Assembly (NCBI GenBank): GCA_036172245.1
Contig: JAYWIR010000053.1
Location: forward strand, 248,001-312,000
Length of the DNA: 64,000 bases
Direction of reading: 5' to 3'
From: Raillietiella orientalis
Taxonomy: Eukaryota
Shown here: positions 1 through 64,000 of the stretch, piece after piece
Position numbering within the stretch: the stretch's first letter is position 1
Layout: each line of letters begins with the position of its first letter
Program-made: the position numbers and the translations under genes
Notes under the pieces: generated by a model
What the model was told of the DNA's origin: nothing
Databases searched by the model: none
The model's input: the letters and a program-made list of their open reading frames with translations, nothing else

Positions 1-701
1 GGGGTTGCTTCTGCCTACTGTGACCGCTGCGGAGCGACGGAGTCGTTTCCGCACCTTGTTATGGACTGCGGTGCCCTCTGGCTACTGTGGAAAAGGCTAG
101 CAGCAGCTCTTCCGTCATTAGAAGACACCGCTCGAGAAGTGCTGCGACGGTTCTTCCAGACACAAGGACTTTCGATGGCTGCGACGATTTCCACTGTTGG
201 TTGCATCCGCGCCATCGTCACAGTCCGAGACGTGCTGGAGAATACTGGACAGCAATGTTGTGTCACCAGGAAGGCAGCGGACTTCATCAGGTCGGCAGCT
301 GCGGGGCGACACTTATATGAAGACACAACGGAGGAGCTAAGCGGTATCCATCGCCGGATCAGCAACGGCTTAGAACGACGAAATCGGTGAACCGCCCTCA
401 TTTATTTTTGATTGGTTTTTGTGTTCTAGCGTCCTTTTCCCTATACGCTCCGCAGTCCTTTTGCTGCTAGAACTCTTGAATTTCCCGTTGAGTGCTTGCA
501 ACAACAAGGTTCCCTTGCCCCCTACTCCCATTTACAATTTTGTTTTTTTTTTGGACTCCACTCAGTCGTCCATGTTCTTCCGTTTTCCTGGCCTGCGTGC
601 AAAGGGTGCATCTCCGATGCATGTTTTCAGAGTAGAGAGCTGAAAACAGTCGTTTCCAGTTCGTTTATGTCAATAAACGTCCCACCGTGACCGGGTGAAA
701 A
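1..701 (+). mobile_element. 3' end of an L1/Tx1-like LINE (E-like): ORF2 C-terminal zinc finger, stop at 388-390, 3' UTR and terminal hairpin
   Basis: Frame reads CDRCGATESFPHLVMDC...RRISNGLERRNR*, similar to the E C-terminus at 51764-52042. Ends AATAAA(672)...CCGGGTGAAAA. Confidence 0.85.
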
Positions 702-3700
702 ATTTCAACGTTCGCCTGAAACCAGATGGGCAGAATCACGAGCGTGAACTGCTCAAAGAGGTGTGCATGTCGGTGCACACCTCCAATTTGTTGGCCAGTG
801 CACCGGGGATGGAGAAGAGCATCGACCACGTGTTTCTTGACGTGCACCTGTGCCCTCGCGTGGGCAGGCGCGGCAAGTTACCGTGCGAGCTGTCCGACCA
901 TCGCTCGATAGTTCTCGAGATCCATCCGCGCTACAGGGGCCCCCCCTCGTCAGCGTGGCGTCTCCCAGCGGACTGGCTGAAGCTCCCGGACGCGGCGGAA
1001 CATCTCCGCACGTTCATACGGAGCTTCAGGCTGCGGACACTCCAGGATTCGGACCGCTTCAAGCGGTCGGTACAGGAGTTCGGCGACCAGTCAACACTGC
1101 ACCGCCAACCTACGGGTTTTGGGACCGGGGTCCGTAACGAACGAGCGTACCTGTAGGCCCGTCGTTACGCCTGAACCCCCGAAATCCGCAGGCTGGTGGA
1201 ATACAAAGCAAGAGCAGAGAGGCAAGCCGGTCAGTCCGGATCGGCCAGCTTGGTGGACGATCTGGGCCAAAAGCACTCGGCACCCGCCCAAATGTGCGGC
1301 CTGCTGGGGAGTTACTACTCCTCCCTGTATGCCAGGGCACCTCCTGAGAGGAACGTTTTACGACTCCTGCTTCCGGAAGGCGCTCCAGAGATCGGGGACG
1401 AGAAAAAGACCATCGACTAGTCTTTCACGATAAACGAGATCCTCTCGGCCATCGGAAAGCTCGAAAGGCGCAAGGCTCCAGGGGAGGACAGCCTGCCCGC
1501 GGTATTTTACCAAACTTTCGCTGCTGAACTTACCTTCCTGGTACAGCAACTCACATTGCTGATACGCGAGACAGGTGACTTTCTTGCCTCGTTTCGTTCG
1601 GCAAAGGTGCGTCTCCACCCTAAGGGAGAAGATCTGAGGAGCATGAACAACTAGCGACCCATCTCAATAGTAAATGAGCACGCCAACTTGCTGGCTAGGG
1701 TTTGGGCAGAGCGTCTGGGACGGGTTGCCAACATCTTCATCAGCCCGGAACAGACTTATGCTGTTGCCAGGTGAAGCATGGAGGCGAATCTGTTCCTCGC
1801 AAGTACATGGTGGCAGTTGAAACAAAGCAAAGACCAGGGAGGTCAAAAGAATCCTGGATTCTCCTCTGACCAGGGAGCGGACGCTTTTCATGGAAGAGCC
1901 GCGCCCGGTGCGCTTGCGGTCGCAGTCGATCTGCGTAAAGCGTTCGATTGCGTCGACCAGGAACTACTTCCGGAACTCCTGGAACGCTTGGGATTCCTAA
2001 CCGTCTTCCGGGCTCACCTGCGCTCCATTTGGCGCTTCGCTCTAATAAACATCTCTTTTAGCGGCCGGCACGTATGCGGCGTGCCGGTTCGGCGTGGCAT
2101 AAGGCAGGCTGACAGTCTGAGCCCTTTGCTCTTCAGCATCTACTTCGACCTGTTGCTGAGGGCATAAAGAAAGAATCTGGAAACCCTGCTAAGCTCGTGT
2201 CGCGGCACGCCTGCCGTGTCGGCCTACGCCGACGACCTTCTGCTCCTGCTCCACAAGTCCAGCCCGGCGTCGACGCTCGAAGATTTTTTAAAGTTGCTGC
2301 GCCGCGGGACAAGCCTCGAGGTGAACAGAGAGAAATCTTCCATCGTTCCAACATCACCATTACTTTTAAGCAATACGGCGTTGGCCAGACGGCCGGACTA
2401 GGTCCGCTTGGGGATCCCCACGGGTAGGTGCTTCAAGTACCTTGGCGTTCCGTTGGGGGACTTTTGCGTTGCAGAAGCCTGGTCAGACCGTCTCCAACAG
2501 GTGGAGTTGGCGATCGGCCCGTTCCGGAACGGCAAGTTTTACTTGCAGGAGCGGGCCGCGGTGTGGAACGCGTTCGAGGCCATCCTCCTTCGCCCCTTAA
2601 TTTTTGTTCGCCCCGCCCCTCCTATTATACAGAGACGGACCAAAGCCCTCTTGAGGACTGCTCTTTGGGGCACAGCGAGTTCGCGAGTCCGATTGAAAGA
2701 CTTGTTGGCTGCACGCATGGATGGTGGCTTGGGCCTCCTTCGTTGGAGTGCATCCAACTACAAACAACACTTCGAAAGTTAGCCCTTGCGGCTAGCTTAT
2801 GGACGACGCCATGGTGCGATCCGGCTCGGCTCCTCGCCAGAAGAGCGACCGGCTACAAGGATTGTCCTCAATCCTCTTGGCCTACCAGCGCAGCCTTTCC
2901 AACTGTGGCTTCCATTTGCGCCAGATGGTCGCCCTGATGATGGAGAATACCTAAATCTGCTCCCTCTTCGCGAACTGCACTGCCTGGCTTCAGGTGTCAG
3001 AATCCGCGTAGGCTAAGATCGACGGCACGAGCGAGGCGGAATACAACTGCCTACGACGAAGACCGCACGCTCGAGAGCCGCTGCAGGAGATTATCAACAC
3101 GTCCCGAAAGTTTCTTTGAGCTTCTTTAAGCCCCCTTGCCCCCGTTTTGTCCTCCCTGAAAAACACTAGAAGCAGCAACGTGCGAGCAGCGAGGGAAGTG
3201 TCCTGCCTTATCCGAGGCAGGAAAAAACCTTTAAAGGCGTGGACGACTCGGGAGCTAACGGACGCTGTTTTTCTGAGCGTCTTTCCGAACAGACTCTTAC
3301 GCTGGGGCGCGCTGCTCGGTATACCTCCGGAGGAGGTGATGCTGCCCCCAGCGTGTTGGGACAACTGCACCCTTGCCCTGAGGTGGCAGGAGACGGCGTT
3401 TCTTCTGCTCCACTGGGGACTTTTAAGCAGAGCACGTCTGTCTCGCTGGACATCGAAGAATGTGGATGCTAATTGTGCAGAGTGCGGGGAAAGGGAGACC
3501 TTCCCCCACTTGATCCTGGAGTGTGTTGTACTCCGCGAAATGTGGGACAGACTATCGTCGATCCTCAACATTCCGGAGGGTGACCCGAAAAACATATTCA
3601 GACGCCTCCTGACGCCAGACGGCTTGCCAGACTCAGGGAAGGTAGCAGTTCTCTGCTGCATACGCGGTATCCTGGAAAAGTGGACCGCGTCTAAGAGAGG

Positions 3701-4114
3701 AAGGACCAGCCGGAATGCCATCTACTGGGCAGCGATCTCCTTCGAGAAACCGTGCCGTTGGCGCCGACTTAATAAAAATTTGCCGGCACTTGTTCGCAGC
3801 CGAAAGTGGATGCAAGGGCCTGCTCACGGCGCACCGTGATCCCCTCCCTCCCTCCCCATCCCCAAACAACATTGCCCTCCACACGTTATTCTTTTTTTTT
3901 TTTTGTTTTATTTTTATTTTCTCCGCCCCGACGCTAGTGAGAAGGACCATATCGGCCTCCGGGTCGGTAAGGACAAGTGCAACAATACGACGATAATCTT
4001 CTGAATGTCCTAAATAGGTAAATTAACTTTGTTCAAAAATTTAGACCTTATTATGAAATTTTTGTATTCTGAAAAATGTGAATAATGAAAGTCCCAGCTT
4101 ACCCGGGTTAAAAA
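702..4114 (+). mobile_element. Decayed family F LINE: ORF2 from (D)FNVRL through RT to zinc finger, plus 3' UTR
   Basis: IDH/SDH (695-1156), DLRKAFD and GIRQADSLSPLLF (1778-2167), YADD (2216-2401), KYLG, CAECGERETFPHLILEC (3147-3839). Many stops. Degenerate hairpin and AAAAA at 4091-4114. Confidence 0.88.
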
Positions 4115-4117
4115 CCT

Positions 4118-6810: not shown

Positions 6811-6824
6811 GCGGCCGTTGTCGT

Positions 6825-8780
6825 TTATTACCCGGTTGCGCCGGGACGTTTATTATAATATCAACTGCGAACTGTGTTCCCAGGCGAGGGGAACAGAAAA
6901 TGGGGAGTAGATTTCCCGGAACGCAGTCCGGACACACTGAGAGTTCGGAACGGGAGGGGGTAAGACAATAAATAAATAAACTGGGTGGGGGGGCGGGGAC
7001 AGGGGTATACCGTCTAACCGTTTCTATTCTCAGAACCGGCGGTGAATGCCGCCGATCTCCATCCTCACTTCTGCTCCAGGATGTGGCCACCCGGCAGCCA
7101 TTTGCAGGTTGCAGGCTGCGGTGTCGGGGACCGATGTTGGGACTGCTCGCATCTGCAATACGTGGCGGGCCCTGACAATGGCGCGGACGCAGCAGATGAT
7201 TGCGACGACCGCTCCAAGAGAAAGTCCCCCACGCGTGTAGAAGCGGCGCATCCAATCCAGTGCGGTGTGTCCAGGGTGCAGGAGCGCTGAAGACAGCCAC
7301 TGCCACAGCTCCTGGAGGGCTCCGCACTCAAACAGCAAATGCGGAAGCGATTCCATCGCTCCGCATTTGGCACAGTTCGGGAACGCAACTCCCCCGGAAA
7401 TCAGTTGCGCCTGCTAATTGCAGCACAAATTCCAATGCACCAGCAGAAAAGCGTCCTGCTTCCACCGAAGGGGGAAGAGTGTCGCGTCCAAACACGCAGA
7501 TGGGACCACAAGTTCATCGGTGGGCACCCCGAGGAGCTCACTCCACCGGAGAAGCCCCTTTGCAAGAATGCGAAGTGAGGCAGCGTCTGCCACTTCGCAA
7601 GTCCGCCAGCCGCCCAGCAGTTGGGTTTCGCCTGCGATTTCGCAAGTGATCTCCCACCTCGCCGGCAGGTCACTGTCATCTCGCACCATCATTGCACACA
7701 GTGCTTCGGCGAGTGGCGTAGCGGCTAGGCGTGTCCACTGGTCCTGGTCTTCCTGCACCTCCCCCACTGGACAGTATACGGAAAGTTTCACGCAATGGAG
7801 TTCCAAACTGGACACATCCTGTTGCGCTGCCCAGGACGATAAGGCTTCCTGCCTCCAGGCGTTGACATTCGTCGGCCGGCAGGGGATCCACTCATGTTAC
7901 CCCAGAAGCGTGGCGAGCTGCTTCAAAGGGAAGCCGAATCCTCTCTGGGCGCGCTCCGTGCGTAGATGCAACAAACGTAGTCCGTCGCCACCCGTGCTGC
8001 GCCTCAGCAGCAGCCGCGCTGGAGCACAGCAGGGAGTAGTCCAGAGCTGCGCACAAAGTGCCAGCATGCGGAACTGCACTAGCAGTCTGATCCGCTCCAG
8101 CGTCAGGATGCCCAATCCTGCATACCGCCGAGGAGCCGCCAAGTCCTTCAGGCGTATCCTGGACCTCCCCGGTCCCCACAGAGCGTTACGCAACAAGCCT
8201 TGCGCCCGGCGCTTAGCCGAGTAGGGAGGGGGACAAACAAAAAAGAGAGGGCCGGAAGAAAAGGGGCAACGAAAATGTTCCACACGAAGGCCCGTTCCGA
8301 TAGGAGAAACCTGCCGCCTCGGAGCGGGCCCAGAGCAGTCTCGGCCTTGTGAAGGCAGTCCGACCTCGCTTCTGCAGGACAGAAGGCGCCCAAGGGAACG
8401 CCGAGGTACTTCAAGCACCTGCCCTTGGGGATCCCCAGGCGGATCAAGTCGGACTGCCCCTCCCACGTAGAGCCATCCGGTACAACAGTTGATTTCGTCC
8501 TGTTTACGCTCAGGCCCGCTCCCCGACGAATGAGCTTGAAAAAGTCCTCGAGCCTGGACGCTGGGGTGGACATCGGCAGCAGGAGAAGGTCGTCAGCATA
8601 GGCGACCACGGCCGGTGTTCCCGGGCAGGAGCTCGGCAGGTTGGCCAGCGTCAGCCTGTACGCCCTCAGCACCAACTCAAAGAAGATGCTGAAGAGCAGA
8701 GGGCTTAAGCTGTCTCCCTTCCTGATACCCCGACCTATGGAAACACCGTACACGTGACGCCCGCTGAAAGAGATACAGCA
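6825..8780 (-). mobile_element. LINE 3' part (probably family G): RT C-half, zinc finger, 3' UTR, terminal hairpin
   Basis: GIRKGDSLSPLLFS, YADD, KYLG (8148-8966); frameshifted C-terminus; reverse strand ends AATAAACGTCCCGGCGCAACCGGGTAATAA. Confidence 0.85.
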
Positions 8781-8782
8781 TA

Positions 8783-9664
8783 ACGCGACCACTTTCCCCT
8801 GAACCGTCTTTCTCCCGGTTTCCGCGAAGCGCTGAGGAACGACCGGGCATAACACCACGCCCGTCTTTACTCTAGGACTCCTGACATTCGACGCCTGGCG
8901 GAGTATAAAGCTGGGGCTGAGCGACAGACCTGGCAATCCGGGTCGGCAAGCTAGCTGAACGCCCAAGGCCAGGAATGCTCAGCTCCGGGGAGAATAAACC
9001 TCATCCTGCGGGACTATTACTCCTCCTTGTAAGCGCGTAGAACAACAGAGCGCGCCGTGGCGCAGCGCTTACTGCCGCCAGGCGCCCACGCGCTACAGGA
9101 GGAGCAGACACATCAAGTCGAGGAGCCTTTACCGATGGCGGAGATCGTCTCCGCCATCGGAGAGCTCAGAAAGAGGAAAGCATTAAGGAAAGACGGTCTG
9201 CCCGCGGAGTTCTACTAAGGCTTTGTGGCGGAGCTAGCCCCCCTGATGCATCGGCTTTGCATGCTGATCCGAGAACAAGGGGACGTCCCCAAATCGTTCC
9301 GGCCAGCTAGAGTACGTCTCCTGCCGAAAGGAGGAGACAATCGCGACGTAGGCAACTGCCGTCCCATCACAGTAGTGAATGCGAATGCGAAGTTGCTTGC
9401 CAAGCTTTGGGCTGAGCGACCGGGACGGGAGGCGGAATCCGTTGTGAGTCCGGAGCAGATATACGCTGTTCCCGGAGGAAGCATGGAGGCCAACCTGTCC
9501 CTCTCCAGTACATGCTGGCAGTTGCAACAAAGCGAAGACCAAGGAGGTCAAGAGAATCCTGGATTCTCCTCTGACCAGGGAGGGGACGCCTTTAATGGAA
9601 GAGCCGCGTTCGGTGCCCTTGCGGTCTCAGTCGATCTGCGTAAAGCGTTCGATTGCGTCTACCA
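8783..9664 (+). pseudogene. Family F-like ORF2 fragment (linker to RT motif DLRKAFDCV)
   Basis: ORF 9225-9710 has PKGGDNRDVGNCRPIT and the F-type loop EDQGGQENPGFSSDQG; similar to 4118-4790. Confidence 0.8.
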
Positions 9665-10379
9665 GTTGCAAGTGCGGAGGCATTTGTCTCCTATCCGCCA
9701 TGGTGAATAGCGCCATGGCAAGTCCGCTGTGGATTGATGCAATCCTTTTGATCGGATTTTCTGTTCTCTACAGCGCGTGCACCGTGGCGAATGCTCCTAG
9801 TGCAGCGACGAGCACGCAATCGGGCGTGTCCACCTGGACGGCGGATAATCGGACCACGAACGACTGGTCCATGGCCGACGGGACGACCTCCTTCCCGCGG
9901 ATATTTAGCGGGGTGCGGAGAAGGCTCTGGACCAGGGATGCCTCCTTGCAGTGCACCTCCCAGTTTCCGAGCGCGTTAACCGGCATGACATACAGGAGGT
10001 CGTCCTGTCAGACCCTGACGCGCAAAAGCTCGTCCCACAAATTTTCTTTGACCCTGTCGGAGATCACAGCACTCACCCGATAGCAGAGCGCAGGCTTGTA
10101 GCCATGGGCTGCATATGCCTGCAGCTCTGCTTCGTCGGGCGGTGCTCCGTTGGCTGCCGCCGCCTTGACGACGGCGGCGAAGCTTCTCGCCGTTGGCAAG
10201 ATACAAGAATCAGAGGCGGACCGGACATCTGAAGTAGAGTCTCCACTGCCAGTAGCAGCCTCCACATCCATCTTTTGCTGCAAAGGTTCCGTGGACATCA
10301 CAGTGGACGGACTCGGGCACACCACACACAAAAAGACGGAAAGGAATCACGCTTGAGGAGCAACACAGAACACGTCCGT
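9665..10379 (-). mobile_element. Second family G 5' part (5' UTR and ORF1 N-half)
   Basis: Near copy of about 6095-6810 (MSTEPLQQKMDVEAATGSGDS; MPVNALGNWEVHCKEASL). Confidence 0.85.
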
Positions 10380-10393
10380 GCGGCCGTGGTCGT

Positions 10394-11505
10394 GGAACAC
10401 GTCCCCACCGAACGCCGCAAGGTAGAAATCGCTGCTACCGAGGAGCAACCCCTCTGTTGACTCTGTCAACAGGAAGGGGAGCAAGCCGGCGGCGGCGTCC
10501 GTCATCGACACCACCATCGATGACGTAGGCTTCGCGCGAGCCGCGGTGGAGCTGGCAGCCTCGTTGCAGCCAGAACCCTCCATGGCTGGCAAGAAGGCTG
10601 TAAGGCGTACGGCCTCCCCTCAGAAGTCCCCCACTTCCGACTCCGAGGTGGAAGCGGAAAGCGTAGCATCCGTTTCCACGGCACCGCGCAAGAAGGCTGG
10701 ACGTGAGTCCACAAAGCCAAGGAAGCTCGTCTCCCCCGTCGAAGGGGAAGAGATGGCTTCCGCAAGCGAGGGTGCCATGAGCGTGGCAAACTCGCGGGAC
10801 CCGTTGCACGAGAGACTCCCTTGCACGGACACGGAAGGAATGGAAGGAGTGGAGGCCGAACAGGTGCCTCAGGTGCCTGAGAAGGCCAAAACCCCCATGG
10901 ACATCCCGCCTGCCTCGCAAGAGGCGGGCTCCCCCACACCTTAATCTTCCCAGCAGTAATGCCGGGAATCTCCTCCCGCCGTCGTCTGCGCATCGCCGTT
11001 AGGAACGTGAACGGCATGACAGACGCCGGCAGGATACGAGACATGGCCGCCCTTCTCGAGTCCTACGACCTTGCGCTGCTGCAGGAGATCCACGTGATCT
11101 CTGCAGAAGAAGCGCAAGAGATCGAACGAATCTCCGGAGGGCAGCTATGGTACAGGAGTAAGAGAGCGAAAGGTTGCGGTGTCGCCTATCTGCTTCGGCC
11201 AGCCTTCGAGGCCGCGGCTTGGAACGTGGGGTTTGACGATCACGGTCGTGTCAACCTGCTGACTCTCAGGTGGTCCGACTCGATCGATCTGATCGTCACG
11301 AACGTGTACGCACCGAGCGGCCCGGACCTGATGACCAGGAGTGCGAGGAAAGAGTTTTTCCTTGCCCTCCGGCGAGACTGGCTGACCGAAGCATGCGTGC
11401 GGAATGCCCATCTGGTTGCAGGCGATTTCAACGTTTGCCTCAAACCATATGGGCAGAATCCCGAGCGTGACCTCGTCGAAGAGGTATGCATGGCGGTGCA
11501 CGTGG
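10394..11505 (+). mobile_element. Family F fragment: ORF1 C-terminus, TAATG junction and endonuclease N-part (ATG 10959)
   Basis: AAVELAASL..KKAVRR; MPGISSRRRLRIAVRNVNG, QEIH, NVYAP, GDFN. Confidence 0.85.
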
Positions 11506-12338
11506 ACCACGCAGTCAAACGCTTTATGCAGATCGACTGCGATCGCTAGGGCTCCCTTCCCCACCTGGAAGTCCTGTCCCTGCCCGGCTGACGCCCCCAA
11601 AGCGGGGCTACCGATCCTTCCCTCTTCCTTTTCTTTACTACTCTGCACATGAAACCATGTGCTCGCGAAGAAGAGGTTGGGCTCCATACTTCGCCCGGGA
11701 ACAGCGTAAGTCTGCTCCGGGCTAATTATGGAATTGGCCACCTCCCCCAGACTCGAAGCCCACAGTCCGGCTATCAACGTGGCTTCGGTGTTCACAATTG
11801 TGATCGGACGCCAGTTGCTGAGTTTCCTGAGGTCTCCTCCTTTCGGAAGGAGCCTCACTCTGGCTGATAGAAACGAGGCGGGTACATCGCCTTCATCTCG
11901 GCTCAGCCTTGTCAACTTAAGCACCAGGGGTGCCAACTCTTCCGCGAAGCACTGAAAAAACTCCACAGGCAGGCCGTCCTCCCCTGGTGCTTTCCGCCTC
12001 TTGAGCCTTTTGATACCGGCGAGAATTTCGCCGGTGGTAAAAGGCTCGTCGAGGCTTTCCTCCTCCTCCTCCCCTATTGCCGGGGCACCGTTCGGAAGCA
12101 AGCGCCGAGAGGCATCTTGGTCCGGGGGCGCCCTGGCGTAAAGGGAGGAATGATAACGCCGCACGAGGTGCCGTATTCTAGCCGAAGCCGAGTGCTCCCG
12201 GCCCTGGTCGTCCAGCAAGCTGGCCGATCCGGATTGCCAGACTTGACGTTCGGCCCCGGCTCGGTACTCTGCCAGGCGACGGACATTTGAGGTCCTCGCG
12301 TAACGACGGGCATACAAGTACGCTCTTTCGTTACGGAA
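11506..12338 (-). pseudogene. ORF2 linker/RT fragment (RNERAY to DLHKAFDCV), probably the continuation of the D element at 17013-19662
   Basis: ORF 11145-12587 contains KAPGEDGLPVEFF, NWRPIT and DLHKAFD. Confidence 0.8.
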
Positions 12339-14810: not shown

Positions 14811-14814
14811 CGGC

Positions 14815-27405: not shown

Positions 27406-27413
27406 ATACACCA

Positions 27414-51441: not shown

Positions 51442-51450
51442 GATTGAAAT
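51442..51450. repeat. Target-site duplication GATTGAAAT (second copy at 57355-57363)
   Basis: Exact 9-bp repeat flanking full-length E. Confidence 0.88.
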
Positions 51451-54400
51451 TTATCACCCGGTCACGCCGGGGCGTTTATTAATAATAATAAACTGGTCAG
51501 GGACAATGTCCCCAACCAACAGAACGACAGAGAACATAGAAAAATTACCGCCACGCAGGCCTGGTAAACAAACCGCTCGCAGCGTGGGGGGAATGAGGGG
51601 AAACAAACAAAAATCAAAAACTGGAGGGAAGGGTAACGGGTTTTTGGTTAGGCTCCGTACTCACGGGGATTTATACGATGAGCACCTAAAATGTTCCGGA
51701 GCCTATGGGGACGCGGGTGTAAAAAGAAAATACAAATTTAGTTTATGGAGTGTAGGGCAATGATCACCGGGTTGGCCGCTGATGAGGGTGTGTAAACCGG
51801 CGGTGTATTGCGGCGAGATTCCTCTTTGTCTCCTCTGTCAAATGAGGCCATCTAGCGGATGCTCCCATGTAGAAGGATGCTTTGCTGATTACTTCTTGGT
51901 GCTGTCCGTTGATTACCAACGCCTGGCGGACGGAAACTATCGCGCGTATGCAACCGATGGTTGCAATCCTTGCGCTTAGTGAAAGCCCGCTCGGCGTGAA
52001 GAATCGTCGCAGCACGTCTCTTGCGGTGTCCACGGGATGCAATAGTGCTGTTGCCAGCCTACGCCACAGTCCTTGTAGGACACCGCAGTCCAGAAGTAGG
52101 TGTGGAATCGACTCCGTCGATCCGCACCGAACGCAGTTCGCAGACGCAAGTCCCCGGAGTCACGATGCCAACGCTCGTTGCACTGAAAACCCCAGTGAAC
52201 GAAAAGCAGCACGGCTTGTTTCCAAGCAAGGGGGAGCAGCGAACTGTCCATACACTGAGGAGGGACTACAAGTTCTTCGGGGGTGACAGCAAGTTCTTCT
52301 GCCCACCGGAGGAGTCCCTTTGCAGTAACACGAGGAGTGGCGGCGTCCGCCAACTCACTTGTCTTCCAGGTGCCAAGGAGTTTGGTTCTTCCCGCTATCG
52401 TGCAGGAAACCACCCACCTCGCCGGTTGGTAACTGTCGTTTCTTGCCCTGAGGGCAGACAGCGCTGCGGCAAGAGGCGTGGCAGCCAGGGTAGAAAACTT
52501 CACCTCGTCCTGCAGTACTTCTTCCAAGGATCGTAGAAAAAATTGGCGCAGGGGGCGAAGATCTTCAGGGCGTATTCCTTGGAACGCCGCCCAGGATTCA
52601 ACAGACTCCTGCCGCCAAGCTTCAAAGTTCATTGGGCGGCAGGAGATCCAAGAGTGTGCTTCCAGAAGTGCGGTCAACTGCCGCAATGGAAACCTGAAAC
52701 CCCGCTTCCTGTATTGAGTGCCCGGCAAAAGCGAGAGAAATCCTCCGCTGCCGGCGCATCTCCGCAGGAGAATGCGAGCTGGCACACACAGGGGGGATGT
52801 CCATAGCTGGGCACACAGTGCCAGCAGTCGGAACTGCACCTGCAGTCCGATTCGTTCCATTGTCAGGATACCCAAACCAGCATCCCGACGCGGAGCTGAC
52901 AAATCTTTAAGGCGGATCCTGGATCTCGCCGGACCTCAGAGAGCGTTCCTGAGCAGGCGTTTAGCCCGCTGTTTTGCCGCATAGGGGGGTCCAAAACAAA
53001 AAACAGGGGACGGAGGAGGGGGGCCACAAAGGTGTTCCAAATAGTCGCCCGTTCCTGCAAGGTAAACTTGCCGTTGAAGAACGGGCTGATGGCCAACTCT
53101 GCTTTCTGAAGACAGTTCGCCCACGCTTCGGCTGCGCCGAAAGCGCCCAACGGAACGCCAAGGTACTTAAAGTACCCGCCCGTGGGAATCCCCAGGCGGA
53201 TCCAGTCGGACTGCCCCTCCCACGACGTACCCACAGGAACGACCACGCTCTTCTCTCTGTTCACGCTCACGCCCGCTCCTCGACGAATCAGGTCGAAGAA
53301 ATCCTCGACACTGGACGCCGGGGTGGACATGGGGAGCAGAAGAAGCAGGTCATCAGCGTAGGCGGCCACGGCAGGCGTTCCCGGGCAGGAGCTTGTCAAG
53401 TGAGACAGCGTCAGCCTGTATGCTCTTAGCACCAACTCAAAGAAGATGCTGAAGAGCAACGGGCTTAAGCTGTCGCCCTGTCGGATGCCCCTACGAACGG
53501 GAATACCATACACGCGGCAGCCGCTAAAGTGATGCAGGTTAGCGCGTGGCGCCAGCACGCGCGCAAATACAGCAGGAGTTGCGCCGGGAACCCAAGGCGT
53601 TCCATAAGCTCCAAAAGCAGCTTCTGGTTTACGCAGTCGAACGCCTTGTGGAGATCGACCGCGACCGCCACGGCACCTGGCGTTCCCTCCTGCCGTCGGC
53701 GCCTGTTCTTTTTGCCTGCGGCAGTGACTTTCGCAGCAGCCTGGCTTTGCTGCGCCACAACTTCCTGCAGCTGCATCCATGTACGGGCGAAAAGGATGTT
53801 CGCCTCCATGGATCGTCCCGGAACCGCGTAGGTTTGTTCCGGGCTCACCACAGATTCCGCGATTCTTCCTAACCGCGCGACCCACAGCTTGGAAAACAAC
53901 TTGACGTCCGAGTTCACCAAGGTGATCGGACGCCAGTTGTTAAGTTGGCGCAAGTCTCCGCCTTTCGGCAGGAGACGCACCTTCGCTGAGCGGAAGGAAT
54001 CAGGGACATTCCCGGATTCACTCATCAGCGTCGCGAGTTTCAGCATCAAAGGAATTAGCTTAACTGCAAAGCACTGATAAAACTCTGCAGGGAGCCCATC
54101 CTCGCCTGGCGCCTTTCGTCTCTTCAGCCCAGCGATGGCGGACGAAAATTCATCCGCCGTGAAGGGCTCGTCGAGACGTTCGCGTTCCTCCTCGCCGACA
54201 ACACGAGCATCCTGAGACAGGAGTATCTCAGAAAGAATATCCTCCGTCGGGGATTCTGCGTAGAGCGAGGAGTAGTAGCGTCTCACAATGCGGCGTACTT
54301 CGGCTGGGGCCGAACATTCCTGGCCTTTGTCGTCCAACAGGCATGCTGCTCCGGACTGCCAGACCTGTCGCTCGGCCCTCGCCTTGTACTCTGCGAGACG

Positions 54401-57354
54401 CCCGACATCCGCGCGTCTCGAAAACGTGCGGGCCTGCAGAAAGTCTCTACTGTTGGCCACGCCCTCTACGAAACCGCGTGGAAGCCGGTGCAAGGGGAAT
54501 TGGCAGCAGAACTCGCGGACAGATCTTTTGAGATCGTCCCAGTCCGCAAGTTCTTGAATGGCAAAGCCTCGGAGGTATCCACGTAGATGCTCCGCAGCCT
54601 CCGGTTGGCTAAGCCAATCCGCCTGCATCCTCCAGATTTGCAACGGAGGCCCCCTGCCTGGCGGAAGGATCTCAAACTCCAACCTGTGGTGGTCAGAAAG
54701 CTCAGTCAACAATCTTCCTCTCCTACCCACACGCGAATGCAGGTTTTCATCGAGGAAAACGCGATCGAGCGATCTTTCCATTCCAGGTTCGCTGACCATC
54801 AAGTTGGCGGCGTGCACGGACGCGCACATCTCGATGGGCAGCGCGCGCTTCCTCGGGCGGCTCCAATCGTCGGAGAGCAGGCGGACGTTGAAGTCCCCAG
54901 CGACGAGGTGCGCCACTTGGAAACCGGAGTTGTTGAGCCAGTGGCTCTGCACCTCACCAAAGAAAGCTACTCTTCCTTCGAGGTAGCGAGAGCCACTCGG
55001 CGCGTAGACGTTCGTAACGACGAGATCGATGGACTCGGACCACTTGATGACAAGCTGGCCTATCCGTCCGTTGTCATCGAAACGAACACTACGCACCGCT
55101 TCCGCCATTTTTCCTCTTACGTGGAACGCGACGCCGCACGTGTGTGCGCCGCCGCACCGCCAATGTAGCGTTCCGCCTGCGCGCTCCTCGATTTCGGCTG
55201 CCTGCTCGTCGGAGATTACGTGAATCTCCTGCAGCAGCGCGAGGTCGAAGGGGCGCAGGGCGTTGGCTACTAATCGCCTCTTCTCGTCGTTCTGCAGTCG
55301 GTTCACGTTCCAACACGTTACGGACAGACGACGAGAAGACGCGATTCCTCGCATTACTGCTGGGAAGGTGGCGGCTTTTTGCTCGCTTTATCCGGCGAGC
55401 AGACGGCGAGCAGCACGACTGGCTGGAGGGGACGGTCGCCACCGTCCTCTGTCGTGCTTCATGCATGTAATGCCTCCACGCCAGGCTGAACCCCGTCGGG
55501 TTTCGTGGAGACTTCGCGTTGCTTCGCGGCGAGCGTTGCCTGGCTGCCTACTTTGGATCGGCGCGCACACGCTTTCGAACGAGTTGTCCTCGTCTCGGTG
55601 ATCGGAACGGCATCCATTTCGGAGTCCGACCGGCGCATGTTCGATCGGGTTTCGGCCTTCCGCGAAGCAGTGACAGGTTCTGCTGGATTAACAGCTGTCC
55701 TGTTTTCGTTTTCCGTCACCAGAGCATCGCTTTTGGTGACGGCTGCTTTCCCGGCGCGCGCGTTTTCAGCGTGCTCACGCGCAGTTGCACGAGGGACCTT
55801 TGCTGAAGTCTTCTTTACTTCATTACGGTTCCTCACTTCGCGTGGCGCTGTAAATGGAGATTGTGCTCCATGGCCATCTTTGAAGCCATCCGCGTCTTTG
55901 GACGGGAGCACTTTGGATGGCTTCGACACGCTCGTCATGGACGCTGCCTTCGGAAGGGCTTTTAATCCCTTCGTTGGCATGGCATCCGCGCCAGTCGAGA
56001 GCTTGCTCTCCGACTGCGACGGCGTGAGATTTTTCTCCGCTTTCGCGGTGTTGGATCGCGACGCGGATTTTTTTTTGCCGACTTCCGAAGTCGACACGGC
56101 ACAACCCTTCTTACCCGATTTGGGCTTCGCAGCCACTGCAGGAGGTGAAGGAATGGATCTGACGGTACTGGAAGTGTCCTTACCGCCGTTGTCCATTGGC
56201 ATCCCCGCCGGTTGCTCGAAGTCCGAAAGAGCCGGGCGTGCTTGGGAAGGACAGCTATTGCACCTAGGGGGACTTACCATTGCCCCGGATTCCCCGCACC
56301 CTTTCTTTTGCGGCTCCTCTGCCGCGAGAGGGGGCGCGCAGGGCTTCGCCTGCGAGGTTTCCTGCTGCTTTGGGGCGACATTCCGCCTCGCGATTTTTCG
56401 GAATTTCTGCCGTGGGGTCTCCAGGATTTTCGCAGATTTTTTCTTTTTATCCGCGCTTTGTTTTTTAAAATGGAGCTCCGCGGCTGCCTTTTTTCGCAAA
56501 AGATCCTGGCAAATTTTTAATTGGTGCCCGGATAGTTTGCAATAACGGCATTTTCCAGAGGGGCATTTATCCAAACAATGCCCCTCCTTCCCGGATTGCT
56601 CGCACGTTCTTACTTTCCAAACGAACCACAGGTGAACGACCGTGTCTTTCACCTGTAGTTTGATGGGCAGCAGACGGCGGTCCGGCATTGTAAGCCGGAC
56701 TCCAGCGACTCCGCTGTGTATGGACGGGAAGTCCTTGAGGTTGCTACGCACCCTCCACAGCGCATGGACCGTGGCGAATTTCGCCAACGCGTTCCGAATA
56801 TCAGTATCGGAGATTTCCGACTCGATGTCGAAAATCTCCACCACAAATGAGTCGTCCATGGCGGTCGGGAAGACCTTCTGGCCACGGATCGACAACGGGG
56901 TGCGCAGCAAGCGTTGCACAAGTGCAGCGTCTTTGCAACGCACCTTGAAATAGCCCATGTCTTTTACGGGCATAATGGCGAGAAGGTCCTCCTCCCGCAC
57001 GCCAACACGGGTCAGTTCATCGTTGAACTGATTCCCGTCGCGCGCAGAAAGAAAACCACTCACCTTATATCGGAGTGCAGGTCTATAGCCTTGGGCTACG
57101 TATGCCCGCAACTCCGACTCGTCGAGAGGTTTCCCTTTGACGGCTGCTGTGGCAGCAACGTCAGCAAAACTCCTCTCCATTGGCGAGAAAGACGAAGTGG
57201 AGGCGGCCGTCGGTTCCGCGATTGCAGATCCAGATGCTGTTCCTCCAACTTCAGTAGCTTCAAGTTGGGTCGACATCGTCGTCAAAATGTACGACGCCAA
57301 GATGAAGCGGATGAAAGCACGGAGACGAGAGCGAAGAAAAACACGTCCGCACTC
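51451..57354 (-). mobile_element. Full-length family E LINE (5904 bp); ORF1 (ATG 57276) and ORF2 (55354-51764) carry frameshifts
   Basis: All EN, RT and zinc finger motifs; TAATG junction; exact 9-bp flanking repeat GATTGAAAT at 51442-51450 and 57355-57363. Confidence 0.94.
57336..57354 (-). promoter_or_regulatory. Conserved 5'-terminal motif (G/A)GACGTGTTT, putative internal Pol II promoter element (representative copy)
   Basis: Motif or close variant near every element 5' end; promoter function is inferred. Confidence 0.55.
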
Positions 57355-59797
57355 GATTGAAATCTCCCGCTATCAGGTGAGCCCTACGCACATTGGTATC
57401 CGCCAGCCAGTCGCGCTTCAGGGTTTCCAGCAGCCTGGTGCGATCGCGGTATCTCTGTTTGCCGCTGGGGCCATACACGTTTGTGACGATTAGTTCGATC
57501 GAGTCGGACCAGCTAAGAATCATCTGACATATCCGACCGTCGTCATCAACCCGCACGCCCTTTACGGCAGCGTCGATGGCCGGCTTCACGAAGAACGCGA
57601 CCTCGCAGGTGTTGCGGAGGCCGCATCGCCAATACAACCGACTCCCCGCGATCGTCTCGATCTCCTGGGCGTCTGATGCAGTGATCACGTGGATCTCCTG
57701 CAGCGGCGCCAGGTCGAGCTCACGCACGGTGTCGGCCCTATCTCGCCTGTTGCCGTCGTCGCGCAGCCCGCTGACGTTCCAACAGGCCGCGCGAATCCGA
57801 CGACGACTGGCGCGCCAGGGTGTTAGTCCTGGGAAAACAACAATGCGGCGTTCGCCACCTGTTGGTGCGGGACGCTAGGTGGAGAAGGAGGAGGGACAGG
57901 TACTGAAGGCACCTGTTCCTCCTCTTCCATCGGTGCCGGCGGGTCGGCCGGATCACCTGCAGGTGGAGTCGCGCCTACCTGTTCGCCCTCTTCCATGGGT
58001 TCGGGCTGCTCAAGTTTCGCGACTGCAGATAGGACTTCACCCCCCTGCTCACACTCCTCCATGGAAGTGGCCGACTCGACGGCTTCCGGGCGTGGGTGTT
58101 TCCCCTCCAGGATTCCCAAGCTGCCGCTTCCTTCTGGCTTCTCCTTCTCGCTGGTGGAGGGGAGGCGCCTCCTGGGATTCTGGGACTTGCGTCCCGACTT
58201 CCTGGGGGGTGCCTCCGAGGAGGAGGATCCGCTTCCGGCCCCCATGTCGCACTCACCTGCGGGGGACTTCTTCGTATGAACCGACCTGCGTACGCCCTTG
58301 CGCGACGGGGTTTCTCGCTCGGCGAGCGTTGCTGCGAGCTCCTCCGCCGCTTTCTCGAAGGCCGCTTCTTCGCCAGCGGCGACCGTTGCCGCGGCCTGCT
58401 CCGCGACCTTATCGAGCGCGGCGTCATCGCTGACGGCGAACGTTGCCGCGGGCTCCTGCGCGACTTTATCGAGCGCGGCGTCCTGGCTGTCGGTGCGCGA
58501 GTCTCGCGTCTCACCCTCTAAACGTAGAATGGGCTCGTCCACGCGAGTATTCATCGGGTCCGCATCAGCTGTTCCGCGAACATTGCCGCGGGCGGACTCG
58601 GCAGGAACGGCTAAGCGTTCCAGTGCCACCGAGCATTCGTGAAGTTGTTTTTTTTTTGAAAGCGGCGCGGCTTTTTTCTTGTTGCCGACAGTTTTCTTCT
58701 CCGGTTTTTCTTCTGGCATCACTTTTTTTTTTTTCTCTTTTCTGGCCTAAACCAGCTGCCAACCCTCCTCCATTTCCGCGTTCACGGGAGCTTTTTCCTC
58801 CAACGTCTGTACGGGAGAAAGGGAGGCTGGCAGTTGTTAACGGCTATTTTGGAGAGCTGGTCTTTCTACCAGCTTTCCACGTTTTCCCTGCGCCCTTTGG
58901 CGGCAGGGGGCACCGGGGTGGGGCGCTTGAGGCACACGCGCCGAACGAGACCCTTTTCGCCGCATAGGTGGCACACAATGTTCGGGCACCTTTTTCGTAG
59001 ATGCCCTACTGCATTTCAGTAGCCACAAAATTGGCATTTCCTCACGTACCAGAGGTCCACCGCTTCTTGGCAGACCTCCAGCTAGTAGGGAAGCGCACCA
59101 CGCTCTTTCACGGTGATACGCGCGGCAGCTTGACCTCCAAAAAGGCTATTGTAGCCTTGGAAAATCGTGGACTTCGGCCACAACGCGTACACTTCTGCGT
59201 GCTTTTGTAACTGTTCGCGAACCCCTCTCCTAGTCATGCGACTGGAGATCCCAGTGAGATGGACCACCACCGAGCGGTCCATCGTCACCGGCAAGATCTT
59301 CCAACCATCAACGATCAGCGGTTCGGTGATCAGGTGTCGGGCCAAGGTGATATCCTTGCATACCACCTCGACCCGCAGCCCGCGGCTGAGGACGCAGAGG
59401 CCGTCCAGATCTTTTTCGAAGGTATTGGCGTTCTGCAGCGCCTTCGTAAAGGCGCGTGCAGTTCGCCCATCGAAAAGGTTGCCTACCTTGTAGACTAGCG
59501 AGGGTTTATACCCCGCTTTCTTGTAGGCTTCCATCTCGGCCATGGCTTCCACGCTAGGCGCGACCACCATTGCGCTCCATGACCTCGGCGTCGCCGGGGA
59601 CGATTCCGGGAAGGATGCCCCTGATCCAGTAGACTGTGGGGACGAACAATCCTCTATCACGCCTACTTCCATCGTGGTATCCTCTGGCAACGCAGCCATC
59701 GGACTCCGACGATGTGCACGCACAAATCACTCAAGAAAAAACCACTCGCCTTGACACGCAGGCGTTGGGCAGTAAAAGCACGTACTCTCTCCACAGC
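57355..59797 (-). mobile_element. Family C2 LINE 5' part (5' UTR, decayed ORF1, TAACA junction, endonuclease to GDFN)
   Basis: MAALPEDTTMEVG, GYKPSLVYKVGNLFDGRTARAF; endonuclease ORF 57260-57727 ends ...IAGDFN. Confidence 0.88.
58320..58490 (-). repeat. 57-bp coding repeat, three units, in C2 ORF1
   Basis: DAALDKVAQEPAATFAVSD / DAALDKVAEQAAATVAAGE / EAAFEKAAEELAATLA. Confidence 0.75.
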
Positions 59798-62744
59798 GGG
59801 GAATCGGCGAGGGAGTCAGGAACGTGCGGGCATACGTTCAGGCCCGCCGTTATTCCAGGCGTCCCGACGTCCGTCTCCTAACAGAATTTAAGGATGAGGC
59901 GGAGAGGCAGGCCTGGCAGTCAGCCTCGGCCTGCCTGCTGGATCATCAGGGCCAAGAACGCTCCAGCCCAGCCCAGGTAAGCCGCATCGTGCGGGAGTTT
60001 TATTCCTCCTTGTACGCGCCACTAACACCTGAGCGCTATTTCGCGCAGCGCCTGCTGCCGGATGGTGCTCCCGCGCTCAAGGAGGAGGACCGTTCCAGAT
60101 TGGCGGAACCGTTCACGATGGAGGAGATCATCTCCGCCATCAACAGGCTCAAGAGAAGGAAGGCACCAGGGGAGGACGGCCTGCCCGCGGAGTTTTACCA
60201 TCGCTTCGCGCCAGAGCTGGCCCCCCTGGTGCTCAGGTTAAGTGCGCTGATCCGCGAACACGGCGAAGTTCCCGCCTCGTTCCGGTCAGCAAAAGTACGT
60301 CTCCTGCCGAAGTCAGGAGACTTACGCAACATTGGCAACTGGCGTCTCATCACAGTAGTGAATGCGGACGCAAAGTTGTATGCCAAGTTGTGGGCTTAGC
60401 GCTTGGGGGGGGGTGGCCGCTTCCGTGATCAGTCTGGAGCAGACCTATGCTGTTCCCGGACGAAGGATGGAGACAGACCTGCTTCTCGCCAGCCCATGGT
60501 GGCAATTGCGACAACGCGTAGTCCAGGAAGGTCAAGGTAGTCTTGCGCTCCCCTCTGACCAGGAACATCAAATAGAGGGTGGGAGGGACTCGGCGGGAGC
60601 CTTTGCAGTCGCGGTCGACTTGCGCAAAGCATTCGACTGCGTCGACCAGGAACTGCTTTTGGAGCTCCTGGAACGCATGGGTTTCCCGGCCGTGCTCCAG
60701 TCCTACCTGCGCTCCTGCTGGCGCAACGCGTCTATGAATATTTGTTTCAGCGGCCGGCACGGGTACGGCGTGCCAGTGCGCCGCGGCATACGGCAGGGTG
60801 ACAGCCTGAGCCCCTTGCTCTTCAGCATCTACTTTGAGTTGGTGCTTAGGGCATACAGGGTAACTCTGGCAGCCCTGCCGAGCTCGTGTGCCGGCACGCC
60901 TGCCGTGTCGGCCTATGCAGACGATCTTCTGCTGCTGCTTCCCGGGTCCACTCCGGCGAGTGCGCTCGAGGATTTCTTCGAGTTGCTGCGCCGCGGGACG
61001 GGCCTGGAGGTGAACAGGGGGAAGTCGTCCATGGTCTTCGTCGGTTCGGCGTGGGCTGGACGGTCGGATTGGATCCGCTTGGGGATCCCCACGGACAGGT
61101 GCTTCAAGTACCTAGGCGTTCCGATGGGGGAATTCTGCGCAGCAGAAGCCTGGTCCGACCGTCTCCAAAAGGCAGCGTTGGCGACCGGTCCGTTCCAAGA
61201 AAGCAAGCTTCACTTGCAGGAACGGGCCGCGGTGTGGAACGCGTTTGCGGCCCCCCTTCTTCGCCCCCTACTTTTTGTGTGCCCCGCCCCTTACTTCATC
61301 CGTAAACGAGCAGCGGGCCTCCTGAGGACAGTCCTTTGGGGCAAAGGGAGGTCCCGTGTGAGGCTCAAAGACTTGTGCGCTCCACGTAAGGACGGAGGAC
61401 TAGGCGTTCTTACGCTGGAGCGCATTGAACTACAACTTAGGTTCAGGACTCTCGCTCTTGCAGCGGAATTGTGGGACACGCCTTGGTGCGTTCCAGCACG
61501 CCTCCTGGCCCAACGAGCCTACGGATGCGACGGACTTTTGTCGTTTCTGCTGGCACGCGACCGCAGAGAAGCACACGGCTGCTTATTCCTGCGTCGCATG
61601 GAAGTTGCGGTACGGGAGAACGCCTAGATCTCCTGCCGCCCAGGGAACTACTCTGCATGGCTGCACGAGTCAGTGTCCACCTGGGTAAAGATCCACGTTT
61701 CGGCGGGCACAAGAAACACTTGCCTGCAAAGGCACGCCCGCTGGAAACTGCAGGAGATCGTGCAGTCCCACGAAAAGCGCATGTGGGCTTTGATTACCCC
61801 CCTTGCCCCAGTGCTGCCCTTCCTAATCGACGCCAGGGACAGTAGGGAGCTTGGGAAATAAAACGTGTCCTGCACTATTGGAGGCAGGACACAAACGATT
61901 ATGGCGTGGACATCTCGGCAGCTAGCGGACGCTGCGACACCGAGAGTCCCGCCTAACGGAATTCGACGCTCGGGCGAGCTACTCGGACTATCTCCGGAGG
62001 AGATGAAGTGGCCCCCGGCGTCCTGGAACAGTGGATCATCCCCCTGAAATGGCAGGATGTGGCGTTGCTTGTGGTCCTCTGGGGACTTCCATTCAAAGCA
62101 CGCCTTCATCACACAACCCGTGGGGCTGTGGATCCTTATTGTGACCGGTGCGGGGAAAAAGAGACCTTCCCCCACCTTCTCATCGAGTGCAGTGCCATTC
62201 GCCCTTTATGGGATCGCCTTACGGCGATCCTGGACTTGCGCGGATGCGGCCCTAAGGACGTTTTTAGGCTCCTCTTCCGTAGTGACGCCTTGTCCCCCCC
62301 CTCTTCTGTAGCAGTGTAGCAGTCCTCTGTTGCATTCGAGGATGTGCGGCTTTCTGGAACGCCAATGCCTAGTACGCCGCCAACCGGCAACGCCTTACGG
62401 TTCACCCGCCTATTCTGTCGAGACGTCTGCAAGTGGCGCCACTTGGGCGCAGAGAGGACTCAGCTTGTACGGATCCTAAATAGGATCTAGAGGACCTATC
62501 CGCCCGCACGGTGATCTTCTCCCTGCCCTCCCATTCCCGAAACATTTGCTCCCTCCCATACTTCAACTATTTGTTTGTTTTTTGTTTTGTTCTTTCCCAA
62601 CCCCCGCGGATCGGATGGACCTCTACGGCATAGCGCCCGTAAATACCAAGCTGTTTTGTAGTGGTGGACCTTTGGGTTCATCACGCGACAATCCATTGTG
62701 ATTTTATTCTTTTGAATAAATTCCCCGGCATATCCGGGTGAAAA
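59798..62744 (+). mobile_element. B1 LINE 3' part (linker, RT, zinc finger, 3' UTR), decayed
   Basis: Starts at GEGVRN; YADD in ORF 60362-61627; hairpin at 62715-62744. Confidence 0.9.
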
Positions 62745-63030
62745 CGCGGTTCCGGCTTCGTGCGGCGAAATCGCTACGGTCGCGATCGATAGCGCGGCAC
62801 ACGTTGCTGCGATCGACACTGTTGTTCCAGTCCAGTCCACTGGAAGCATTGTAGCGGCGTGCGAAAGCTCAGCCGCTGCGGTTCGGAACAATAGCGCGCC
62901 AGTTGCCGCAATCGAATCGCTTGTTACGTCACCCAAATCGCAACAGGCGGAGAAATCCGTGATGACGTGGAACGCATCCCTGTTGCAAACTTCGCGCAAG
63001 CCGCGGAAGAGTTGGCTGCCTTCCTGAGGC
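62745..63030 (+). pseudogene. B2 ORF1 fragment
   Basis: Near copy of 31225-31512. Confidence 0.85.
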
Positions 63031-63415
63031 AGCGACCTCCACTTCGTCTTTCTCGCCAATGGAGAGGAGTTTTGCTGACGTTGCTGCCACAGAGCCGTCA
63101 AAGGGAAACCACTCGAGGAGTCGCAGTTGCGGGCATACGTAGCCCAAGGCTATAGACCTGCTCTCCGATATAAGGTGAGTGGTATTCTTTCTGCGCGCGA
63201 CGGGAATTCGTTCAACGATGAACTGACCCGTGTTGGCGTGCGGGAGGAGGACCTTCTCGCCATTATGCCCGTAAATAATATGAACTATTTCAAGGTGCGT
63301 TGCAAAGACGCTGCACTTGTGCAACGCTTGCTGCGCACCCCGTTGTCGATCCGTGGCCAGAAGGTTTTCCCGGCCGCCATGGGCGACTCATTTGTGGCGG
63401 AGATTTTTGACATCA
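63031..63415 (+). pseudogene. Family E ORF1 N-terminal fragment
   Basis: RAYVAQGYRPALRYKVSG...EDLLAIMPVNNM; inverted copy of about 56825-57205. Confidence 0.85.
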
Positions 63416-63419
63416 GATT

Positions 63420-64000
63420 TTCCGACGTCAGACGTTCATTGAAGTTCGATAGCACTTGTCCTTACTGACCCGGAGGCGGATAAGATCCTTCACTGGCGCC
63501 GGGACGGCAAAAATAAAAGAAAACAAAAACAAAAAGAGAAAAACGTCTGGAGGGCAATGTTTCTGAGGTGGGGGAGGGAAGGAGGGGATCACGGTGCGCC
63601 GTGAGCAGGCCTTTGCATCCGGTTTCGGATGCGAACAAGTGCCGGCAAATGTTTTTGAAGTCGGCGCCAACGGCACGCTTTCTCAAAGGAGAACGCTGCC
63701 CAGTGGATGGCATTCCGGCTGGTCCTACCTCTCCTAGACGCCGTCCACTTCTCCAGGATACCGCGTATGCAGCAGAGCACTGCTACGCTTCCGAAGGCTG
63801 GCAAGCCGTCTCGCGTCACGAGGCGTCTGAATAAGGTTTTCGGGTCACCCTCCGGAATGTTGAGGATCGTCCAGAGTCTGTCCCACATTCCGCGGAGGGC
63901 AACACACTCCAGAATCAAGTGAGAGAAGGTCTCCCTTTCCCCGCACTCTGCACAACTAGCATCCACATTCTCCGTTGTCCAGCGAGACAGGCGTGCTCTG
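63420..64000 (-). mobile_element. Family F LINE 3' part (zinc finger, stop at 63589, partial 3' UTR)
   Basis: CAECGERETFSHLILEC...PAHGAP*, homologous to 3147-3839. Confidence 0.87.

Follow-up and report, generated by a model that had tools for sequence, protein, structure and literature searches.

Human L1, a long interspersed nuclear element (LINE), nicks a short degenerate site and inserts genome-wide, and Tx1L inserts into Tx1D transposons. LINEs that carry an apurinic/apyrimidinic endonuclease (APE) and are sequence-specific are on record from the Tx1 and R1 clades; their targets include transposons, and Utopia-1_NVit is described as occasionally inserted in tandem in U2 genes (PMC4640811). 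In the passages that deal with it, the clustering of Zepp is attributed to nested insertion targeting existing copies (PMC8226300, PMC3446292), Chlamydomonas is described as having a single ZeppL family (PMC9940879), and double insertions of transposable elements are treated as satellite seeds (bioRxiv 10.1101/158386). Here we analyze a 64-kb stretch of the Raillietiella orientalis genome assembly (contig JAYWIR010000053.1, positions 248,001 to 312,000; hereafter the window) that consists only of L1-like retrotransposon sequence, about 97% LINE, from about ten related families. On the evidence of this one window, LINEs of at least two families, B and X, probably insert site-specifically at conserved codons of the second open reading frame (ORF2) of their relatives.

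The window resembles the Zepp and ZeppL clusters described for Coccomyxa and Chlamydomonas as gene-poor nests with frequent 5' truncation and head-to-tail copies, which are represented here by an array of three family A elements, A1-A2-A3. The passages on Zepp and ZeppL name no fixed nucleotide site, target duplication, or cross-family targeting, whereas all three are present here for B and X, and about ten families stand in place of the one ZeppL family reported in the Chlamydomonas text. In behavior, B and X are like the Tx1 and R1 LINEs as they are portrayed in the sources at hand (Tx1L, Keno, R1), which combine an APE endonuclease with one sequence of a multicopy target and a fixed orientation. 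They are unlike them in that the targets are coding motifs of sister LINEs, including the endonuclease's own GDFN motif, and in that several families with different sites share one array. Similar to what is described for Utopia in U2 genes, a second insertion into the same target results in head-to-tail dimers, but here the ORF2 of another LINE serves as the target, and the spacer consists of exactly the 8 or 10 base pairs (bp) duplicated from the host codons. Our literature search, which ran without the original 1997 and 2003 Zepp papers, returned no report in which LINE families aim at fixed positions in the coding sequence of other LINEs, and no fixed coding-sequence or cross-family targets are named in the portions consulted of a 2025 CENH3 preprint and a Chlorella centromere paper. 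Sequence-specific APE LINEs and Zepp-type nested clusters are already known, and fixed coding sites in sister LINEs would be a variant of these.

Two insertion sites in the coding sequence of LINEs

We sorted the elements by their amino acid identities in four ORF2 regions, which separate about ten families (all names are working names). Family A comprises the copies A1, A3, and A4 and the subfamily A2; family B comprises B1, B2, B''', a divergent B', and the B-like fragment S10; and family X comprises X1 to X4 with the relatives F1 and possibly S6. Further families are S2 (two copies), H (S3 and S7), K, G, D, and S9. The endonuclease domain of X is only 47-55% identical to those of A and B. 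Two sites in ORF2 recur as insertion points, T-B for B elements and T-X for X-type elements. T-B encodes L-P-P-G-F-G-E-G (A2 codons 302-309, B2 codons 312-319) between endonuclease and reverse transcriptase, and the following features define it.

11503-12338, minus strand: S10, a B-like ORF2 fragment with 77-83% amino acid identity to B; its right end lies 8 nucleotides (nt) from T-B and its left end after KAFD.
12339-14651, plus strand: B''', a B copy without about the first 10 nt; 5' untranslated region (UTR), ORF1, and ORF2 codons 1-179, ending in TTTCAATC (14644-14651).
25628-31224, plus strand: A1, a full-length A element with T-B and T-X unoccupied; first of the A1-A2-A3 array.
35690-37129, plus strand: A3L, left half of host A3, from C-terminal ORF1 to ORF2 codon ~309; ends with the target copy 37120-37129.
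37130-42807, minus strand: B1, a full-length B antisense in A3, with identical 10-nt target copies at 37120-37129 and 42808-42817.
42808-42817, no strand: B1-B2 spacer, a 10-nt copy of the host ORF2 target (G-F-G codons).
42818-48471, minus strand: B2, a full-length B with intact ORF1 (542 amino acids) and ORF2 (1221 amino acids).
48472-51404, plus strand: A3R, right half of host A3, from the third target copy (8/10) to the A 3' end.
57355-59799, minus strand: B', of a divergent B subfamily (77.6% to B2), whose 5' end meets A4 at T-B and which stops at the GDFN codons, where it hosts X1.
59800-62744, plus strand: A4, an A copy from T-B (target copy 59800-59809) to the 3' end.

Host A3 is split into A3L and A3R, between which two full-length B elements lie on the minus strand with a gap of 10 nt. 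The 10-nt sequence GGCTTCGGTG ends A3L and occurs again as this gap, and a third copy, identical in 8 of 10 positions, follows at 48472-48481. With the target copies removed, A3 across T-B reads exactly as the intact copy A1. A4 begins at T-B (59800), adjoining the 5' end of B', and S10 on the minus strand stops 8 nt short of the site, where it meets the 5' end of B'''; in both cases the insert is antisense. T-B is thus occupied in three host copies from two host families, of which S10, being B-like, has only about 65% nucleotide identity to A. Given a first event, the analytic probability that two more independent ones fall within 10 nt to either side and in the same orientation in a 5.65-kb element is about 3e-6.

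A rival account takes the recurrent junctions for copies of a few ancestral insertions, multiplied within the repeat array by segmental duplication, unequal exchange, or gene conversion and owing nothing to specificity. By the criterion set beforehand, congruent similarities of hosts and inserts would speak for such copying, and at T-B the opposite was found: identity is 93.8% between the hosts A3R and A4 but 77.6% between their inserts B2 and B', and the order is reversed for B''', whose identity to B2 is 91.7% although its host is the most distant one. No single duplicated ancestral insertion therefore explains T-B, because equal divergence and a congruent order would be expected and neither is seen.

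The second site, T-X, lies within the A-G-D-F-N codons of the endonuclease, and its remaining features are listed here.

1-702, plus strand: F1, the 3' portion of a LINE related to X (55% identity to X1 in the C-terminus), with its hairpin and tail running to 702.
703-4114, plus strand: S2, a third-family host with 58-61% amino acid identity to A and B; from the GDFN codons (T-X) to its own 3' end.
14652-14803, plus strand: X4, nt 1-152 of an X element, sense, at the GDFN codons of B'''.
51405-51449, minus strand: the first 37 nt of X2 (51405-51441) and the spacer TTTCAATC (51442-51449, minus strand) between X1 and X2.
51450-57354, minus strand: X1, a full-length X with intact ORF1 (636 amino acids) and broken ORF2; sense at the GDFN codons of B'.

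All X-type junctions lie at GA^TTTCAA(T/C) in sense orientation, with an 8-bp duplication, TTTCAATC. The end of B''' at 14651 and that of B' at 57355 are the same B2-equivalent base, and each is followed by a precise X 5' end (X4 and X1, respectively). The F1 3' tail borders on S2, which starts at 703 with the TTTCAAC of the host. Beyond the X1 3' tail, TTTCAATC leads into the initial 37 nt of a further X copy, so that X1 and X2 lie head to tail with the 8-nt duplication between them. The TTTCAA(T/C) of GDFN is thus used at two 5' junctions (14651/2 and 57354/5), at the 3' junction 702/3, and in the X1-X2 spacer. We rejected the notion that TTTCAA belongs to the X 3' tail, since it aligns with the host GDFN codons. 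Counting both strands, the window has 16 TTTCAAY motifs, 10 of them GDFN sites or their duplicates, and X ends were found at none of the 6 sites outside GDFN. Together with T-B these data bear out the original prediction that the same site is hit in different host families, namely by B-type elements in A3, A4, and S10 and by X-type elements in B', B''', and the third-family copy S2.

The independent T-X events are the junction in B-type hosts, the X1-X2 double insertion, and F1 in S2, the last of which differs from the others in both insert family and host family. A contig from a public sequencing run adds a fourth, reading from an X 3' end through TTTCAATC into 10 nt that match family A downstream of GDFN, a junction that is absent from the window. 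That run contained 0.32 of the sampled sequence words of the window, and two runs of the same sample or study contained next to none. Since it may be the window's own sample, it is not an independent confirmation of the assembly.

At both sites, the junction anatomy is that of target-primed insertion with precise element ends and staggered cuts of 10 bp (B) or 8 bp (X). As a side observation on X, the D codon of GDFN reads GAC in both X copies that carry it (at 23264 and 54895; 2/2) and GAT in all non-X copies with the codon intact (8/8). The differing base lies directly at the X nick, and GAC may, small as these numbers are, be a synonymous change that protects X's own copies.

Counter-evidence and other junctions

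Further elements of the window are as follows.

14804-17015, plus strand: K, a 5'-truncated LINE from about ORF2 codon 550 to the 3' end; meets the ORF2 of D near codon 290, antisense.
17016-19671, minus strand: D, a B-related LINE whose 5' end is complete (19671); it is cut near ORF2 codon 290 and lacks ~270 nt over GDFN through an internal deletion.
19672-22005, plus strand: G, a 5'-truncated LINE whose 3' end adjoins X2 after the K-A-(F/M)-D codons, antisense.
22006-25627, minus strand: main part of X2, from about nt 100 of the 5' UTR to the KAFD codons; its first 37 nt are at 51405-51441.
31225-35689, plus strand: A2, an A subfamily copy, 5'-truncated in ORF1, with an intact ORF2 of 1198 amino acids, directly on the A1 tail.
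62745-63033, plus strand: an A2-like ORF1 piece, 92% identical to the A2 start; its junction with A4 is the same as that of A1 with A2.
63034-63452, plus strand: X3, an X fragment from about X nt 152, where X4 ends.

A number of observations, which we gather here, weigh against the interpretation that B and X, or LINEs of this window more generally, insert at fixed sites. First, occupancy is partial: perfect B targets in A1 and in B2's own ORF2 are unoccupied, and T-B is therefore not saturated. B does not avoid its own kind. Second, of the three target copies in A3, the one bordering the 5' end of B2 departs from the other two at 2 of its 10 positions. This copy (48472-48481) equals B's own ORF2 sequence at the homologous site (45734-45747), and the target copy next to B' (59800-59809) shows nearly the same 2/10 difference from 37120-37129 and 42808-42817. 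The 5'-side copy may have been carried in from the flank of the source element, as in co-transcribed site-specific LINEs, or it may have acquired two later mutations.

Third, some of the shared junctions are not independent of each other. Over the 150 nt next to the X junction, B''' is 92.7% identical to B' and 84% to B2, and farther off the order flips to 83% and 89%, which suggests that the B'''/X4 and B'/X1 junctions probably share ancestry through conversion or recombination. Because of this conversion-like tract we count them as one event, not two. Similarly, segment 28283-31513 is 95% identical to 59796-63033 and has the same A/A2 junction, so that one of the two is probably a segmental duplicate of the other. 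Both findings are what copying of a few ancestral insertions would produce, and the B1-B2 and X1-X2 pairs could in principle stem from unequal exchange. Copying of an ancestral insertion, envisaged in the original prediction as one of two outcomes that would speak against it, is thus probable for A/A2 and for the single event behind B'''/X4 and B'/X1 and contradicted by the incongruence at T-B. Beyond T-B, F1 in S2 joins another insert family to another host family, the public-run contig gives an A-type host for X, and two families are unlikely both to have undergone unequal exchange across as little as 8-10 bp of homology. We therefore regard copying without specificity as a very unlikely account of the two sites.

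Fourth, family A does not follow the pattern of B and X. Its array consists of full-length A1 followed by A2 and A3, both 5'-truncated in ORF1, and lies antisense in the 5' UTR of X2 between X nt 37 and about 100. The A members adjoin with 0-nt spacers, the A 3' flanks in the window are three different sequences, and no fixed site for family A is apparent from them. Fifth, at the S6-S5 pair (position 6824), the similarity of S5 to its sister copy S8 reaches the junction, and no host spacer is therefore demonstrable. Of three families predicted to form tandems with a spacer of host coding sequence, two hold (B1-B2 and X1-X2) and the third, S6-S5, is not borne out; likewise, the claim that each family has its own target in a relative is supported for B and X and not supported for A, so that a network with one site per family is only partly supported, by two families.

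Sixth, the public-run contigs include flanks that do not fit. In two of those listed, an X-like 3' end is followed by an unrelated, non-GDFN flank, and one low-depth contig links a B 3' end via 16 other letters to an X 5' end, off the B site. The tally among the contig ends listed is therefore one that fits the X site, two that do not, and one low-depth B joint that does not; the contigs are short, and these counts are single examples among the loose ends listed, beyond which there are 81 more.

Flanks of this kind are compatible with elements that are aimed at a region, for instance centromeric chromatin or existing LINE DNA, with a short and weak nicking preference whose motifs happen to lie in conserved codons. 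Besides some of the public-run contigs, such aiming accords with family A and several other 3' ends with differing flanks, and with the published passage on Zepp clusters, which invokes nested insertion targeting existing copies and names no fixed sites (PMC8226300). However, the 6 other TTTCAAY sites of the window are unused, and at the B site both the 10-nt duplication and the orientation are repeated in hosts that share only about 65% identity. Sequences with at most 2 mismatches from the 14-nt B target are also more frequent than expected (9 in the window versus 3.2), and those that are non-homologous (7702, 41579, 47241) are unoccupied. Regional aiming with a weak preference is distinctly unlikely on these grounds.

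Finally, many junctions, among them K/X4, A2-like/X3, S9/S10, and S7/S8, do not parse as simple nested insertions. We also tried to read the whole window as simple nested insertions and failed, since several elements are cut on their 3' side or adjoin unrelated sequence. X4 keeps X nt 1 to about 152 and X3 starts there (14803/14804 and 63033/63034); a simple insertion junction would call for the 3' end of a LINE next to the break, and neither neighbor provides one. X4 and X3 may be the halves of one X element that now lie 48 kb apart in the nest, or they may mark a recurrent break or truncation point. At 22005/6 the 3' end of G lies against X2 in antisense, where the K-A-(F/M)-D codons of reverse transcriptase motif A end. 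Two further ends, that of S7 on its right (9665) and that of S10 on its left (~11500), lie about 13 nt beyond the G/X2 position, after KAFDCVxQ. This suggests clustering of breakpoints in the KAFD region with no demonstrated site. S9 is cut at ORF2 codon ~206 in B numbering (~11500), and a B-like contig of the public run diverges at the homologous B2 base (window position 46070), which suggests a further recurrent breakpoint.

Such clustering at GDFN, the KAFD region, and ORF2 codon ~206 would be expected if the junctions arose by homology or template switching at conserved motifs (RNA-RNA jumps or LINE recombination) and not by an endonuclease. The same explanation would accommodate the several elements that are cut on their 3' side, which are not a product of target-primed reverse transcription, and the identity of the B2 5'-side target copy with B's own sequence there. 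At the B and X sites, however, complete termini meet an otherwise uninterrupted host with a direct duplication of fixed length, and there is no similarity between element ends and target that could guide a switch. We consider an origin by switching extremely unlikely for these two sites and retain site-specific insertion of B and X as the preferred explanation.

Other rearrangements in the window concern neither site directly. D has lost about 270 nt including the GDFN region (17250-17266; B2-equivalent 46335-46060) and carries about 15 unrelated nt instead, which may be the scar of a lost insertion. D on the minus strand followed by G on the plus strand (17016-22005), and S6 minus followed by S7 plus (6824-9665), each present an inverted 5' segment and then a sense 3' segment. 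Both pairs resemble the twin-priming inversions of L1 and might be such inversions if the two parts of each pair were of one family; S4 and S6 share only 35% amino acid identity, and S6 is therefore not tied to the family of S3 and S7 through S4. A piece of about 28 nt upstream of the S8 5' end (10394-10425, minus strand) looks like the start of a 5' UTR of the B/D type, and such short pieces of 5' UTR serve repeatedly as insertion points (51405-51441 is another). The 3' UTR of S2 includes about 100 nt of AT-rich sequence (3981-4080) that the sister copy (63452-64000) lacks, the similarity of the two ending at that point.

Composition of the array and structure of its elements

The window has a G+C content of 55-64% and contains no N. 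Matches to ORF1 and ORF2 at the protein level cover 92.2% of it, and adding self-similarity raises this to 96.6%; the 7 uncovered stretches of at least 60 nt are mostly 3' UTRs. Neither tRNA genes (tRNA scan) nor Rfam families were found in the window, and hence no known 5' ribozyme was detected either. The LINE-only, gene-free array that had been predicted from the sequence is therefore confirmed.

We scanned the 16 longest open reading frames of the window against Pfam and found RVT_1 (PF00078) in six of them, Exo_endo_phos (PF03372) in four (E down to 2e-13), and CCHC knuckles in three. The latter belong to ORF1, where PF00098 scores 24.2 bits in B2 (cut-off 20.8), is weaker in D and A1, and gave no Pfam match in X1. 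The zf-RVT domain (PF13966) reaches 26.0 bits in the ORF2 of A2, under the cut-off of 27.5 bits, and was not detected in B2. The best PDB match of the intact B2 ORF2 is human L1 ORF2p (E = 1.6e-50, versus 8e-16 for R2), and its endonuclease aligns to the human L1 endonuclease through the GDFN motif, whose residues we take to be catalytic in L1 endonuclease. Despite being the best match among solved structures, with GDFN aligned, human L1 ORF2p has low identity to B2. A protein search with B2 ORF2 returned 11 matches among 8000 candidates scored, each with at most 31% identity. ORF1 and ORF2 of B2 overlap by 66 nt (46623-46689), and the first ATG of ORF2 does not come before codon 194 (codon 133 in A2); ORF2 of this type is presumably translated via frameshifting or reinitiation.

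All families share one layout of the 3' end: an AU-rich stem with AAUAAA is followed by a 5-bp GC hairpin and 4-6 mostly A-rich nt. Zepp carries a poly(A) tail, unlike the elements of the window with their few A-rich nucleotides after the hairpin. The hairpin motif has 13 matches in the window, of which 12 were accepted as element 3' ends; the match at 26289 was rejected, being without AATAAA and inside an ORF1. Among six ends folded, the GC hairpin is predicted in all six and the upstream AU stem in five, with z-scores from -0.4 to -3.4. Across the 12 ends (e.g., 42818-42862, minus strand, and 31180-31224, plus strand), AAUAAA forms the 3' arm of the AU-rich stem just upstream of the invariant GC hairpin, and the 5' arm of the stem differs between families while pairing persists. 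Complete copies have precise 5' ends with a common GGACGTGT-type motif (7 matches in the window). A metagenome scan with the shared 3' hairpin motif gave 15 loci, none of which had a tblastn match to the ORF1 or ORF2 of the window, and which are therefore chance matches.

Proposed mechanism and its meaning

The junctions at T-B and T-X can be accommodated in a simple scheme whose order of events we infer from their anatomy. The APE endonuclease of each family would recognize its own site, and reverse transcription would be primed at the cut from an RNA whose 3' end is recognized via the conserved hairpins; tail and target show no visible complementarity to each other. The duplication would rebuild the site beside the new copy, and a second insertion there would create a head-to-tail pair whose spacer is the duplicated host codons. 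As the second member of a tandem enters a rebuilt site, recognition would have to rest on the duplicated bases plus one flank. Each insertion would inactivate a competitor, each new LINE copy would bring fresh targets, and, since these targets are conserved LINE codons, the array would grow on itself and stay LINE-only and gene-free. Other processes would be overlaid on this scheme, namely a less specific end-to-end insertion, as in family A, together with 5' truncation, the deletion of sequence, and either duplication or gene conversion.

More tentatively, and with somewhat less than even confidence, one may see in these LINEs a guild whose members are hyperparasitic on each other, each endonuclease having evolved for different function-constrained codons (GDFN, LPPGFGEG, and possibly KAFD). 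If this were true, every successful LINE would import the targets of others, the array would be self-seeding, self-limiting, and gene-free, and it may be the centromere-like LINE domain of its chromosome.

Should site-specific insertion of this kind hold genome-wide, it would provide a molecular mechanism for LINE-only, gene-free clusters, which are centromeric in some algae. Retrotransposons would then compete by disabling each other at constrained codons, in an arms race that would be visible in synonymous escape changes. The families would also be a source of natural APE endonucleases with long and distinct recognition sequences, which would bear on how such enzymes gain specificity and on RNA-templated site-specific insertion.

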